Shown: positions 2,924 to 7,250 of the stretch, piece after piece
Numbering within the stretch: position 1 is the first letter of the stretch
How the letters are laid out: every line of letters begins with the position of its first letter
NCBI GenBank assembly: GCA_900620265.3
Contig: UYNY03000113.1
Span: 17,402 to 52,784, forward strand
Direction: 5' to 3'
Length of the DNA: 35,383 bases
From: Nitrosopumilaceae archaeon
GTDB taxonomy: Archaea; Thermoproteota; Nitrososphaeria; Nitrososphaerales; Nitrosopumilaceae
Made by a program: the position numbers and the translations under genes
Notes under the pieces: generated by a model
What the model saw: only the letters and a program-made list of their open reading frames with translations
Database searches by the model: none
Told to the model about the DNA's origin: nothing

Positions 2924-3187
2924 ATGATGCTGGCAGAGCAGACCGTATTCGAGGCCGTGATAGGTCGAAACGAGGAGGGGTATCTTGCTCTGATCCCGCA
3001 GCTGCCATCCTGTTCGGCATATGGGGAAACACTGACCAAGGCAATAAAGAACATCAGCGAGGTCGCGACCCTGTCGCTTGCACATGCCAGAAAGTACGGA
3101 TTTGCCGTGGGATCACACGAGGGGGAAGAATACCTCCGTGGGCAAGGATTCGACATTGTAGAGAAGCGCCCAATCCGCATAAAATAA
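2924..3187 (+). CDS. hicB: HicB-like antitoxin (UPF0150 / RNase H-like fold, short form without a DNA-binding tail)
   Basis: 87 aa. FEAVIGRNEEGYLALIPQLPSCSAYGETLTKAIKNISEV matches the HicB pattern (Y.A..P.LPGC...GET.EEA..N..EA). It lies in AT-rich DNA directly upstream of a HicA-like ORF. Confidence 0.7.
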   Translation: MMLAEQTVFEAVIGRNEEGYLALIPQLPSCSAYGETLTKAIKNISEVATLSLAHARKYGFAVGSHEGEEYLRGQGFDIVEKRPIRIK

Positions 3188-3236
3188 TCGAAATCATCCA
3201 TGAAAACTTTTTAAAGCACAGGCGCTCTTGATTCAT

Positions 3237-3485
3237 GTGCCTAAAAGACCAAGGAGGGGACAGAAAGCCACGGATGTATGCTACAAAGACGTCCTCAAAG
3301 TGATACGGATACTAGGTTTTAAACAGCAAAGCCAAGTTGGCAGCCACATGTTTTTTTCACATGATGATGGCAGGGCCACAACGGTGACACGTATGAACAG
3401 TTATGGAGAGGGGTTGTTTCATCTAATGTTAAGGCAGATGGGTCTGACACGGAGCGAGTTTTTTCATATTCTGGATGACCGATAG
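3237..3485 (+). CDS. hicA: HicA-like mRNA interferase toxin (YcfA family)
   Basis: KDVLKVIRILGFKQQSQVGSHMFFSHDDGRATTVTRMNSYGEGLFHLMLRQMGLTRSEFF fits the HicA dsRBD-like pattern with the GSH motif. The track start is TTG 3228. The in-frame GTG 3237 sits about 26 nt after a TTTTTAAA box (3208-3215), so it is preferred. Confidence 0.75.
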   Translation: MPKRPRRGQKATDVCYKDVLKVIRILGFKQQSQVGSHMFFSHDDGRATTVTRMNSYGEGLFHLMLRQMGLTRSEFFHILDDR

Positions 3486-3763
3486 CCGGGCGCCCGTCTG
3501 TCCTACACGCTCATCCAAGCCTTGGATCTCGGCGGCCCGTCCGGGCCCCGTCCGGGATGCCGCTGGCCGTCCGATTATTCGCTCCGCCGCCCCCCTCCCC
3601 CGCCGCCCGTTGCCGGCCGCCCCGCTTACGCGCCTGATCCGGAATCCCGCGCCCCCTGCGGGCGGGCCCGGTGGCGCCGTGGATCCCGCCCCATTCAAGA
3701 CCCCCCGCAGCCGGCGGGCCCCGACCCGGCGGCCGCCGCAGCGCCCGCTCCCACGCTAAAGGG

Positions 3764-4530: not shown

Positions 4531-5331
4531 ATGGTCTCGGTCGCAGTCCCCGGATCGTCCCTCTCCGACGAGCCGAACATGGAGGGCAGGGCCCGCAAGG
4601 CGTCCGTGATAGCCAGGGCGTGCGCAATATTTGCCGTCGACCAGGTGCTCGTCTATGCGGACGGGGACAGGCGAGATGGCGAGCGCCTGGCCGCGCTGCT
4701 CCGGTATGCAGAGGCGCCCCAGTACCTGCGGCGCGCGCTCTACCCGAGGACGGCCGCGCTCCGGTACGCCGGCGTGATGAGCCCGCTCGGGATAAGCAGC
4801 CACTCCGTGACGCCGGATCCGCGCAGGATCACGGCCGGTGATGCGCGCGAGGCCGTCGTCGTGTCGGCCAGGGGGCGCAGGTTCATAGACGCCGGGCTCG
4901 GGCGCCTGCTCCCGTACCACGGGCGCGCGCCGCCCGGCAGGAGGATCACGGTGATGTTCCGGGGCGGGCCGCCGGGGCTGCCGTACAAGGAGGTCGGCAG
5001 GTCCGAGGCGCCCGGGTACTGGGGGTACGTGGTGCGCGAGCGCGCCGGCCTGCGCAGGACGCTCGCAGAGTGGGAGGGGCGCGTCATAATAGCGTCAAGG
5101 CGCGGGAGGCCTGCTGGGCGCGCCCTGCGCGCGCCCCCTGACGGCGGCACGCTGCTCGTCTTTGGATCGCCCGAGCGCGACGTGCACGAGATACTCGGGG
5201 GGCGCGCCGGCGGGGTGCGCGACGCCACCACCGTGGACTTTTTCCCGGGCCAGTCCACGAGGACGGTGCGCCTCGAGGAGGCCCTGCTCGGGGCGCTGTC
5301 CGTGATAAACTCGATGGGGGGGACGTCCTGA
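4531..5331 (+). CDS. SPOUT-class RNA methyltransferase, DUF171 / C9orf114-like (COG2106)
   Basis: VSVAVPGSSLSDEPNMEGRARKASVIARACAIFAVDQVLVY matches the DUF171 N-terminal signature (SVAIPGS...ArAcaIF.VDEivVy). It begins 3 nt after the psmA stop. Confidence 0.7.
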   Translation: MVSVAVPGSSLSDEPNMEGRARKASVIARACAIFAVDQVLVYADGDRRDGERLAALLRYAEAPQYLRRALYPRTAALRYAGVMSPLGISSHSVTPDPRRITAGDAREAVVVSARGRRFIDAGLGRLLPYHGRAPPGRRITVMFRGGPPGLPYKEVGRSEAPGYWGYVVRERAGLRRTLAEWEGRVIIASRRGRPAGRALRAPPDGGTLLVFGSPERDVHEILGGRAGGVRDATTVDFFPGQSTRTVRLEEALLGALSVINSMGGTS

Positions 5332-5435
5332 TGGCCGAGGGCAGGGTGTTCCTGGCGCTTGCGGCCGGGATGGGCGCGTTCGGTGTAGCCATGGGGGCCG
5401 TCCTGATATGGGAGATGATAGGCAGCCTGCCGTGA
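5331..5435 (+). CDS. Candidate 34-aa hydrophobic micro-protein (MAEGRVFLALAAGMGAFGVAMGAVLIWEMIGSLP)
   Basis: Its ATG overlaps the SPOUT gene stop (TGATG at 5329-5333). It has a single predicted TM helix and is below the ORF-track length cut-off. Confidence 0.3.
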   Translation: MAEGRVFLALAAGMGAFGVAMGAVLIWEMIGSLP

Positions 5436-5481
5436 CGTATGAGACTCTCAGTGTGTGAAATAAGACGGGGTTGTATTATAA

Positions 5482-5492
5482 CCCCCCCCCCC
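5482..5492. repeat. C11 homopolymer tract
   Basis: Eleven consecutive C residues at the left edge of the AT-rich islet. Confidence 0.9.
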
Positions 5493-5596
5493 ATGCCATA
5501 AATAACAAGTTGGGCGTTTATATGCATGTAAAATCTGCCCTCGCGTGTTGCCTATTTTTTTCGATCACCGCTTCTGGTATCTTTCCGACCAATTGG

Positions 5597-5604
5597 TTTA
5601 TATA
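5597..5604 (+). promoter_or_regulatory. TATA box (TTTATATA) for the mini-antitoxin/GNAT pair
   Basis: Ends 23 nt before ATG 5627, which is the leaderless spacing seen elsewhere in the window. Confidence 0.55.
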
Positions 5605-5626
5605 CCAATCTACGAGGTCAATAGGC

Positions 5627-5758
5627 ATGGTAATGAGAACGGTGGGACCACTGGGAGAAAAGGCATGGGCAGAACTTGAGAGGGTTATGGATCTCCCACC
5701 CACAAAAAAGCAAAAGGAGATACTTGATGAGGCCAAACGGATTTTGGAATCGTCTTAA
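5627..5758 (+). CDS. Putative 43-aa antitoxin resembling only the C-terminal (toxin-binding) part of DUF1778/TacA
   Basis: MVMRTVGPLGEKAWAELERVMDLPPTKKQKEILDEAKRILESS. The stop overlaps the GNAT start (TAATG). The ..W..F/L...LD.PP....L pattern recalls the DUF1778 C-terminus. The 95-codon track version (5471-5758) has an implausible hydrophobic, Cys-rich N-terminus. Confidence 0.45.
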   Translation: MVMRTVGPLGEKAWAELERVMDLPPTKKQKEILDEAKRILESS

Positions 5759-6285
5759 TGTGTGATTTGATGTCAGTCGATTTTTCAGAATCCAAGCCCA
5801 TTTTACTGGATGCCAATATTAAAGGAGTCGATAGTTTTCACAACCAAAAATCAGAAATGGTAGAGCACCTTCAAAATTTAGCACTAAAAGATCAAAAAAA
5901 CAGAATCGGGATCACGTATGTTTGGCCGCATGATGGTCAGATTGCAGGATACGTGTCCGTGTCGATGTATTTGCTGCGTAGATCGCTTTTGACCAGAAGC
6001 CTAAAAAAACAGATCCGTTTTAAGGAGATTCCTGTTATGTTGTTGGGTCAGCTTGCAACACATACTGATTATCAAAAAAATGGGCTTGGAAAACGTATGG
6101 TGATATGGACCGTCTCTCTAGCACTAAAATATTCAAGAGAAATAGGATGCAGAGGAGTTGTATTACACTCGGATCCTTCACTTATTGAATGGTATAAAGA
6201 AAGATGTGGCTTTCATTACCTGCTAGATGATGAAGAAGTTGGCAACAGGAGAAATATCATGTATTTTGATTTAAATCACCTATAA
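5758..6285 (+). CDS. GNAT acetyltransferase, TacT/AtaT/KacT-like type II toxin
   Basis: IPVMLLGQLATHTDYQKNGLGKRMVIWTVSLALKYSREIGCRGVVLHSDPSLIEWYKERCGFHYL carries the acetyl-CoA Q/RxxGxG motif and the overall layout of GNAT toxins. It is translationally coupled to the small upstream ORF and lies in AT-rich DNA. Confidence 0.75.
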   Translation: MCDLMSVDFSESKPILLDANIKGVDSFHNQKSEMVEHLQNLALKDQKNRIGITYVWPHDGQIAGYVSVSMYLLRRSLLTRSLKKQIRFKEIPVMLLGQLATHTDYQKNGLGKRMVIWTVSLALKYSREIGCRGVVLHSDPSLIEWYKERCGFHYLLDDEEVGNRRNIMYFDLNHL

Positions 6286-6512
6286 AGCTGATCTTGAGAT
6301 CAGAGAACCCTATTATACTCTCGGACCTTGGAGATTCTCACTAGATATCCACAATCATCGCCCAAAAATGTGTACAGGTGTGGCAATTGAGGCTGCTCCA
6401 GTAGATACACGATCAGTACGTTCGTGTCAAGAGCGGTGTCGATATAATAACAGCCGGATCCCTGTTTGCCATGAGCATATTCCTATGACCTCTGAGAACC
6501 CAACCGGAAATA

Positions 6513-6520
6513 TTTATATT
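6513..6520 (+). promoter_or_regulatory. TATA box (TTTATATT) for the 6543 gene
   Basis: Centred about 26 nt upstream of ATG 6543. Confidence 0.5.
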
Positions 6521-6523
6521 CCA

Positions 6524-6540
6524 ACCAAGTGTAACTTGGT
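6524..6540. promoter_or_regulatory. 7-3-7 perfect inverted repeat ACCAAGT-GTA-ACTTGGT (candidate operator)
   Basis: Lies between the TATA box and ATG 6543, so it overlaps the expected transcription start. Confidence 0.45.
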
Positions 6541-6542
6541 AT

Positions 6543-7160
6543 ATGACGGCGGAACGGGCACGGGAGGAAAATACACCCCATACGGGGGGCGTGGACGACA
6601 TCGGGATGTCCATACTATCGCTGGTTGCCCACAACGAGGAAAAGTATGAAGAACCCGTTGGGAAGACTAGGCTTCGCAAGACGTTTTTTCTAATGACAGA
6701 GGAGCTGCCGTGTTTCAGGTCACGCCTGAACTACAAGCCCAAAAACCACGGCCCGTACAGCGATACGCTGGAAAAATGCATGGCTTATCTGATAGATCGC
6801 GACATGCTGGATGAAAGGCATGAGTCTGGCTACAAAAAAAACCTGTATATCACGGAGCATGGACGCAAACTACTTGGAGGCGCCTTGTCCAATATTGGCA
6901 ACGATGTCATAATTTTGCTCCCGCAGATAAACGACTTTCTTAACGGCATGAGCCATGATGAAATGCTCGCATATGTCGACTTGAAATATCCGGGAATGGC
7001 CAAAAACTCCGACAAATACCATGATTTGATAAAACCCAATGCGCTTATTCCTGTAATGGGGCTGATCGAAAAGAGAAAGATCACGGCACAATGCGGCGCG
7101 GAGTTACTTGGAATTACATACACCGAGATGTATAAAAAACTGGGTGAAAGGCTGGAATAG
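6543..7160 (+). CDS. Antitoxin-like protein: N-terminal wHTH (DUF4065/Panacea-like, tentative) fused to a C-terminal UPF0175-like HTH
   Basis: TRLRKTFFLMTEE...KNHGPYSDTLEKCMAYLIDRDMLDE...LYITEHGRKLL resembles Panacea/wHTH. IPVMGLIEKRKITAQCGAELLGITYTEMYKKLGER matches the UPF0175 pattern (klS.g.AAelaG.s..ef..lL.erG). Confidence 0.5.
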   Translation: MTAERAREENTPHTGGVDDIGMSILSLVAHNEEKYEEPVGKTRLRKTFFLMTEELPCFRSRLNYKPKNHGPYSDTLEKCMAYLIDRDMLDERHESGYKKNLYITEHGRKLLGGALSNIGNDVIILLPQINDFLNGMSHDEMLAYVDLKYPGMAKNSDKYHDLIKPNALIPVMGLIEKRKITAQCGAELLGITYTEMYKKLGERLE

Positions 7161-7250
7161 ATGCACATACTGGACGCGTCGGCAATAATGTCAATTTGTG
7201 ATCAATCGGGGGCCGGCTGGCTGACGGACGGGGTGCCGGAATCGCCCTGA
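7161..7250 (+). pseudogene. Truncated PIN-domain (VapC-like) toxin remnant
   Basis: The ATG directly abuts the TAG of the antitoxin-like gene. MHILDASAIMSICDQ is a typical PIN N-terminus with the first acidic residue. At about 7207 the DNA switches to GC-rich and the frame stops after 29 codons. Confidence 0.4.

Follow-up and report, generated by a model that had tools for sequence, protein, structure and literature searches.

The window analysed here is a stretch of 35,383 nucleotides from a Nitrosopumilaceae archaeon, and it carries a GNAT acetyltransferase gene immediately preceded by a very short open reading frame (ORF). The two genes probably form a type II toxin-antitoxin (TA)-like module, in which a GNAT of the TacT kind is paired with a 43-aa, neutralisation-only partner that lacks the RHH (ribbon-helix-helix) domain used for DNA binding. 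A first-pass annotation of the same DNA had suggested such a pair, and the positions it gave for the promoter box, the ATG at 5627, the TAATG overlap, and the GNAT ORF all proved exact when the sequence was re-read.

The acetyltransferase resembles tRNA-acetylating toxins

The first-pass annotation had read the layout of a type II GNAT toxin from the letters and had suggested a profile search as a check. This search gave a significant match to Pfam Acetyltransf_1 (E = 1e-8), and in a phmmer search of the PDB the first 15 matches were all type II GNAT toxins (E = 5.5e-6 to 8.5e-3), including AtaT2 (7f37), GmvT (9ilr), AtaT (6ajn and 6gts), KacT (5zgn and 5xun), and TacT1-3. An AlphaFold2 (AF2) model built from ten family sequences has GNAT topology, with a mean predicted local distance difference test score (pLDDT) of 89.5. 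When the model was compared with the PDB by Foldseek, ranks 1-38 were all AtaT, TacT, KacT, ItaT or GmvT (E = 4e-13 to 1e-8, template modelling (TM) score 0.71-0.83), and the next match was Naa60, with a TM score of ~0.57. Because the closest sequence and structure neighbours are all such toxins, the protein belongs, by sequence and modelled fold, with the TacT/AtaT/KacT tRNA-acetylating toxins, which bears out the proposed layout.

The acetyl-CoA motif (Q/RxxGxG) noted in the first reading is present as QKNGLG at residues 106-111, within DYQKNGLGKRM. Further along, Tyr146 in IEWYKERCGF aligns with the tyrosine of the FY..GF motif in GmvT and AtaT2 and is nearly invariant in the clade alignment. 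Judging by the titles of PDB mutant entries (Y144F and Y145F), its counterpart in the F/W-Y-x-x-x-G-F motif is the catalytic tyrosine, Y144 in AtaT and Y145 in KacT. Among the homologues, a metagenomic GNAT that is 38% identical (P0002) stands behind an 88-aa protein with TacA1/PF08681 and RHH matches, and plasmid homologues that are 25-29% identical are annotated as GNAT plus DUF1778 pairs.

A conserved short gene precedes the acetyltransferase gene

When 1.84 billion representatives were searched exhaustively by HMMER with the GNAT, 960 relatives emerged, just three of them at E <= 1e-30, and genomic context was looked up for nine of the 25 best (P0004, P0005, P0006, P0007, P0012, P0014, P0019, P0023, and P0025). 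All nine have an ORF of 44-58 codons that runs up to or into the start of the GNAT gene. Furthermore, a degenerate DNA pattern for the GNAT signature IPxxL[LI]GQ[LI]ATH was run on 185,579 reference genomes and on JGI metagenomes, giving 22 matches in all. Fifteen of these were true GNAT loci (10 genomes and 5 metagenome contigs), and seven were rejected as chance matches (Klenkia L022, L037-L039, L041, L042, and L044). The upstream short ORF was found at the five metagenome loci and at all but one of the ten thaumarchaeal genome loci, the exception (L019) being cut off upstream. A profile made from five short-partner homologues finds an adjacent, co-oriented ORF wherever upstream DNA is present (E = 1e-8 to 1e-27); since it does so at every such thaumarchaeal locus, the 43-aa ORF lies far beyond chance. 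Taken over all relatives examined (~24 distinct loci), an ORF of 43-58 aa stands directly 5' of the GNAT. The survey of related archaeal genomes proposed in the first-pass annotation thus found the short partner to recur at thaumarchaeal loci with upstream DNA, and what had been presented there as a single oddity is a family, conserved and of fair breadth. Among its loci, L016, L021, and L023 are from Nitrosopumilus sp. Fourteen distinct peptides came from the first set of loci, and more from L026, L033, L034, L040, L046, and L047; L030 and L043 share a more divergent subtype, 'MLPK.P..LS.EE', and L027 has a divergent form of its own.

The thaumarchaeal short partners form a gapless alignment with the consensus M-x-x-R-T-[IV]-x-P-L-x-x-x-x-W-x-x-L-...-[GP]-x-T-x-E-Q, and at loci with a significant match to the short-partner profile the ATG is profile position 1. 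Homologues with identities of 28-49% become similar precisely from this conserved ATG onwards. No conservation was found 5' of the conserved Met across the homologous loci, and at several of them in-frame stops lie as near as 2-11 codons upstream of it. The ratio of nonsynonymous to synonymous change (dN/dS) between pairs of short ORFs is 0.05-0.49, with synonymous sites near saturation; for example, the short ORFs of L005 and L021 differ at a proportion of 0.078 of nonsynonymous sites (pN) and 0.97 of synonymous sites (pS).

These observations also bear on the length of the product. As the first-pass annotation had noted, the upstream frame has 95 codons in the ORF list (5471-5758, TTG-initiated), which makes it the longest ORF upstream of the GNAT. 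The frame is open from 5471, and there is a further TATA-like box at 5517-5524, TTTATATG, so that a longer product of 95 aa from TTG 5471 or of 79 aa from ATG 5522 might be made. The extension, however, has no homologue or domain, conservation starts at the Met rather than before it, stops intervene at several loci, and independent gene callers picked the 43-aa form. In addition, two near-identical metagenome contigs (L001 and L002) differ from the window by having 10 C versus 11 C at 5483-5493, which puts TTG 5471 out of frame. We consider a longer product highly improbable. The C homopolymer itself lies in the spacer 5' of the promoter, and its variation is either a true length polymorphism or an assembly error.

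Sequence comparison lends strong support to the 43-aa product, which the first reading had preferred over the 95-aa form, and to near-leaderless expression of it, through the conserved ATG, the upstream stops, the poly-C frameshift, and the spacing of the promoter box. The 95-aa reading is very probably wrong, as is a 38-aa annotation in NCBI (P0003, probably the same gene), which begins at a GTG (5642) five codons late. A word-index search with the 43-mer had as its sole match a 38-aa 'hypothetical protein IBTHAUMO2_990031 [Nitrosopumilaceae archaeon]', and one with the GNAT found the identical protein and P0002 and nothing else. The short gene is uncalled in L005, L027-L032, and L034. Being missed or unrecognised in this way, it would leave such GNATs to be scored as orphans by TA surveys that are based on Pfam domains.

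The short partner resembles the toxin-binding segment of TacA

By eye, the first-pass annotation had likened the 43-aa peptide to the C-terminal segment of DUF1778/TacA antitoxins and to nothing else in them, and profile comparison upholds this. Fifteen short partners were compared by hhalign with a DUF1778/TacA alignment comprising 95 relatives of the TacA protein of P0002 and four PDB fragments. In local mode, short-partner residues 3-25 align with TacA 52-74 (score 23.0, P = 4.7e-4), a score reached by none of 200 column-shuffled queries (mean 8.9, standard deviation 1.95, maximum 16.4). The global-mode alignment pairs residues 1-44 with TacA 50-88, the whole of TacA past the RHH. When a TacA hidden Markov model (HMM) was run on six-frame translations, its best match, individually weak, fell on the short ORF at at least nine loci, at HMM positions ~50-75.

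The neutralising region of KacA consists of betaB (52-56), alphaC (57-70), the linker 71-PPAP-74, and alphaD (75-86), and the residues in contact with KacT are W61, V64, A67, I68, and P72 (PMC6698736). The 43-mer has R4-T5-V6, followed by W14, L17, V20, M21, and P24-P25, and the KacA contacts W61/V64/A67/I68/P72 are spaced identically to its W14/L17/V20/M21/P25. We therefore assign the short partner, with moderate confidence and from sequence, as the counterpart of the betaB-alphaC-PP linker-alphaD toxin-binding segment of TacA. As aligned, it begins just where the RHH would end, and it probably either descends from the C-terminal half of DUF1778 antitoxins or represents its ancestor.

No DNA-binding half and no third gene

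Type II antitoxins combine a DNA-binding, autoregulating half with a disordered neutralising tail, and conditional cooperativity rests on both. The first reading had found no RHH-like segment upstream in the three forward frames, and the absence extends to all six frames, in the window as well as at the related loci: HMM positions 1-49 of TacA found no match there in any frame, and no RHH remnant was found 5' of 5627. The same HMM found the positive control (L003) at 1.6e-47. Likewise, no RHH, TacA1 or NikA-like domain was matched at E <= 10 by the 43-mer or by four homologues. When the flanks of 18 loci were compared all against all, no conserved third gene emerged; the GNAT and the short partner were the only genes in common. 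Because the partner has no DNA-binding or dimerisation domain, the module presumably works without classical antitoxin-mediated autorepression, and with the RHH missing neither the A4T2 complex nor the conditional cooperativity known from KacAT and AtaRT could operate.

A lost RHH might also mean decay, with the 43-aa ORF as the remnant of a full-length TacA from which the RHH was deleted, in a dying pseudogene pair. The pair does sit in a foreign low-GC island, where decay is common, and the distant relative P0002 has a full-length TacA. Against this, a short form with the same ATG occurs at ~24 distinct loci whose GC content ranges from 29 to 64%, the dN/dS values indicate purifying selection, the promoter position is conserved, and no trace of the RHH was found in any frame. 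With protein identities of 28-49%, the related loci are not recent copies of one element. Comparative data thus effectively refute the remnant reading, which we regard as scarcely credible.

Promoter and predicted expression

The TATA box in front of the short gene, TTTATATA, predicts a leaderless or near-leaderless transcript, the start position being inferred from the box. At 14 of 19 loci, the distance from the end of a TATA-like octamer to the homologous ATG is 19-25 nt (mode 22), and AT content upstream of the short-partner ATG peaks at -28 to -25. The first-pass annotation had stated that other genes of the window use the same spacing, and this holds for at least the next gene, where TTTATATT (6513-6520) ends 22 nt before ATG 6543. 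The module would accordingly be transcribed from its own box as a leaderless bicistronic mRNA. At the TAATG (5756-5760), the TAA stop of the partner (5756-5758) shares 1 nt with the GNAT ATG (5758-5760), and the toxin might be translated by coupling, through termination and reinitiation at this overlap.

By analogy with known systems, the GNAT would arrest translation by acetylating charged tRNAs at the amino group. The partner is predicted to consist of a short strand and two helices, the first amphipathic and bearing the invariant Trp, with a Pro-rich turn between them. As in KacA and AtaR, it would wrap a toxin monomer 1:1, blocking tRNA binding and the productive alignment of acetyl-CoA.

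Weighing the toxin-antitoxin role

The pair could instead have nothing to do with TA systems, the GNAT being a non-toxic acetyltransferase of a protein or small molecule and the short protein its regulatory or specificity subunit or its chaperone. Several points weigh against a TacA-like TA module and some of them favour this alternative. Toxicity of the GNAT is predicted by analogy. The clade has a GNAT signature of its own (DSFKN...DQ and GQLATH), which differs from the F-x-C-G and GRLAVD of the classical toxins. For GNATs 'outside the true TA clade' that have short upstream ORFs without DNA-binding domains in TA-like bicistronic loci, Bikmetov et al. left it open whether they are TA toxins or serve other roles (PMC9177977). 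On the side of the partner, the hhalign probability is just 33%, and the TacA profile used was dominated by one subfamily. Neither the 43-aa nor the 95-aa product has a match in Pfam, NCBIfam, PADLOC, PHROGs or the PDB; PF08681/TacA1 gave no match even at E <= 10 for the 43-mer or four homologues; and a PDB search with the five-sequence short-partner profile returned no TacA, AtaR or KacA chain. Finally, a trans-acting regulator may exist elsewhere in the genome. The matches that the PDB profile search did return were designed helical repeats, which were taken as compositional and set aside. Of the HMM searches proposed in the first-pass annotation for both ORFs, the one for the GNAT thus found its family, and the one for the 43-aa ORF gave no curated DUF1778 match. 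The short partner was not filed in PF08681, since it has no RHH feature and stays below the Pfam threshold.

The balance nevertheless lies on the other side. The closest neighbours of the GNAT in sequence and structure are all validated tRNA-acetylating toxins, with a clear gap to other GNATs, and it retains both the tyrosine at the catalytic position and the acetyl-CoA motif. The short protein is like the inhibitory segment of TacA. The loci lie on low-GC islands, have a patchy distribution, and include mobile or defence genes among their neighbours; at least one contig (L020) has two copies, and the sample of L001 has yielded a second paralogue (L011). We therefore consider a non-TA role unlikely and retain a TA-like module with a neutralisation-only partner as the probable explanation.

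Comparison with known systems

The pair shares with TacA-TacT, AtaR-AtaT, KacA-KacT, and GmvA-GmvT the toxin fold, the acetyl-CoA motif, and the conserved Tyr, together with a small partner gene that lies upstream of the toxin gene and overlaps it. The partner also aligns with the neutralising segment of these systems, and the Trp and the spacing of the hydrophobic contacts are kept. It differs in being 43-58 aa long, compared with ~88-99 aa, with the whole N-terminal RHH gone. The hosts differ as well, being mainly Nitrosopumilaceae, and the genes have an archaeal TATA box and a predicted leaderless arrangement.

AtaR neutralises AtaT through its disordered C-terminal region, impeding tRNA binding and acetyl-CoA alignment (PMC7758455). 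According to their entry titles, several PDB structures are complexes of a toxin with a C-terminal antitoxin fragment, namely AtaT-AtaR (6gtq and 6gtr), TacT1-TacA and TacT3-TacA (7ak8 and 7ak9), and GmvT-GmvA (9ils); an RHH-less fragment therefore suffices for binding in known systems. The engineered AtaR, TacA, and GmvA fragments are like the present partner in having the neutralisation segment without the RHH. Those, however, are truncations made for crystallography, whereas here the short form is a native conserved gene with its own start codon and promoter.

Antitoxins that do not bind DNA are known from other families, such as epsilon of omega-epsilon-zeta and PaaA of paaR-paaA-parE (PMC8138530). 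Like these, the short partner would neutralise without binding DNA. Both of those systems have a third, regulatory gene; none is conserved here. The loci described by Bikmetov et al. (PMC9177977) fit the same description, and the present family may be among them, but the short ORFs there were called divergent, whereas the family here is conserved and has profile-level similarity to the TacA C-terminus. No published family of RHH-less TacA-like antitoxins was found, which is weak evidence given the incomplete literature coverage.

Implications

It is possible, and we propose this tentatively, that the 43-58 aa proteins represent a 'neutralisation-only' class of antitoxins to tRNA-acetylating GNAT toxins, widespread though largely unannotated, working without antitoxin-mediated transcriptional feedback, and prominent in ammonia-oxidising archaea. 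Members are also seen on contigs without an assigned origin, and a cyanophage has a similar form. That a fragment can neutralise a toxin would not astonish a specialist; a natural, widespread archaeal antitoxin class without the regulatory half would be new. Such a class would have consequences for how TA loci get detected, and it would give a likely nature to the short ORFs without DNA-binding domains reported by Bikmetov et al. in 2022 (PMC9177977). It would further mean that GNAT-toxin modules can survive with no such feedback loop, raising the question of how the toxin:antitoxin ratio is controlled; candidate means include proteolysis, leaderless translation, and translational coupling. 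Should the clade branch outside or basal to the DUF1778-associated toxins, the short form could be ancestral and the RHH fused later, and the modular origin of type II antitoxins would become directly testable. The partner would also serve structural and engineering studies as a natural inhibitor peptide of minimal size. Moreover, the module would add a lineage-typical mobile element to the TA-rich genomes of sponge-associated Thaumarchaeota (PMC6790972).

Genomic setting and hosts

The features of the locus are listed in Table 1. The island that carries the module has 36-50% GC, compared with 65.7% for the window. It is flanked by an RNA methyltransferase gene (4531-5331) on one side and the rpL3 (ribosomal protein L3) region on the other, and a proteasome alpha-subunit gene precedes it; this gene context marks the host as an archaeon. 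The sponge-associated Nitrosopumilaceae host of the window is the thaumarchaeal symbiont of Ianthella basta or a very close relative; that symbiont is reported to have 64.8% GC and to be enriched in TA systems (PMC6790972).

Table 1 Features of the putative module and its surroundings in the window.
Feature	Position	Strand	Basis
Low-GC island carrying the module	5401..7200		Composition profile and low-GC scan
TATA box TTTATATA	5597..5604	+	Sequence; 22 nt upstream of ATG 5627
43-aa short partner, putative minimal antitoxin MVMRTVGPLGEKAWAELERVMDLPPTKKQKEILDEAKRILESS, without RHH	5627..5758	+	Homologous ORFs, dN/dS, hhalign
175-aa GNAT acetyltransferase, predicted TacT/AtaT/KacT toxin kind	5758..6285	+	Pfam, PDB sequence matches, AF2 model, Foldseek
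Neighbouring 205-aa ORF (6543-7160) with own TATA box (6513-6520), not a conserved part of the module	6513..7160	+	Weak DarG/PDC-M19A similarity

In the 185,579 reference genomes, the GNAT signature gave 11 matches, 10 of them in Nitrosopumilaceae, Thaumarchaeota or Cenarchaeum metagenome-assembled genomes (MAGs), and the clade is almost exclusively Nitrosopumilaceae there. The first reading had called the pair an archaeal example of a mostly bacterial system. The archaeal part stands and the other is half right, as thaumarchaea account for most of this clade among the reference genomes. The neighbours at other loci are often mobile or defence genes, including transposases, an N6-methyltransferase, McrBC, and AAA_15/21 ATPases, which fits a mobile or defence-island module.

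Several related loci are of interest in their own right. Tandem copies of the module lie at 375-1015 and 1792-1941 on a 2.2-kb contig of the Thaumarchaeota MAG APA_bin_56 (L020); the second GNAT is cut by the contig end, and the two short partners have a dN/dS of 0.49. The copies indicate local duplication and divergence of the module.

A paralogous module of ~64% GC (the P0007 locus, L009-L014) comes in part from ERZ23492508, the sample of the near-identical contig L001. Its GNAT is 43% identical, its partner has 58 aa with an acidic C-terminal tail, and it stands beside a DDE transposase gene and a large N6-methyltransferase gene, with QueC downstream. Because this type of paralogue derives partly from the same sample as L001, the organism of the window or a co-resident relative probably carries at least two such modules.

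Outside the archaea, Synechococcus phage Yong-M2-251 (OM868082.1; L036, 989-1671) encodes an acetyltransferase that is 28.6% identical to the GNAT of the window and, ahead of it, a 55-aa 'hypothetical protein', MTEASIYSAQEELLDQRFMGVSPDVFDGVSELLSRPGIARDRLVKLFESKVDWIE. By eye, this protein corresponds to the end of TacA helix 2 and the neutralising tail, without the RHH strand and first helix. As the cyanophage partner is thus also RHH-less with a TacA-like tail, RHH-less partners may have arisen more than once. Plasmid pYN01 of Sulfolobus islandicus (L035, 1120-1737) carries a 205-aa GNAT that is 26% identical and has the classical FDCG and LLGQLGID motifs; among the annotated genes, it has no same-strand upstream antitoxin.

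The neighbouring 205-aa gene

A 205-aa ORF starts 258 nt past the GNAT stop. It weakly matches the antitoxin-related models PADLOC PDC-M19A (E = 1.5e-6), PADLOC DarG (7.4e-6), and the NCBIfam DarG antitoxin (2.8e-4), its similarity to DarG being limited to the non-macrodomain half, and also phrog_14939 (1e-6) and the F-93 winged helix (1e-3). By eye, it is like SocA/Panacea-type antitoxins (RLRKTFFLM...HGPYS). An AF2 model from the single sequence was unusable (pLDDT 41.8).

Pairs of DUF4065 (Panacea) proteins with GNATs exist (PMC9177977), so that the 205-aa protein might be the real antitoxin or a second one, with the 43-aa ORF an accessory. In keeping with this, a homologue (E = 4e-10; L009, 7574-8425) lies ~3 kb downstream of the paralogous GNAT. 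Unlike in those pairs, however, the 205-aa protein has no match to Pfam DUF4065 and is not kept beside related GNATs, no homologue being found within ~4 kb at any of the other loci. The metagenome contigs L001 and L002 are identical to the window over ~5330-6273 and then continue into unrelated, GC-richer sequence; both retain the GNAT with its short ORF, but without the 205-aa gene next to them. We consider this alternative very unlikely. Because it has its own promoter, is absent elsewhere, and lies beyond the breakpoint at 6273, the 205-aa ORF is treated as an island neighbour outside the module, which consists of the GNAT and its short partner.

The breakpoint, a difference at strain level, falls in the last toxin codons, so that the GNAT of L001 and L002 ends in ...FDLGD versus ...FDLNHL in the window. 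A simple insertion, deletion or inversion of 6274-7165 was considered for the tail of these contigs and rejected, as chance 9-13-mers were its only matches in the window.

A second candidate toxin-antitoxin pair in the window

Another candidate TA pair lies on the plus strand in a second low-GC islet (3051-3500), just 5' of the proteasome alpha gene. It comprises a HicB-like gene (2924-3187; 87 aa, PF15919, E = 5e-4) and a HicA gene (3228-3485; 85 aa, PF07927, E = 5e-8). Typical HicB antitoxins are longer than 87 aa, and no DNA-binding domain was detected in the 87-aa HicB-like protein, which would be a second neutralisation-only antitoxin in this 35-kb window.

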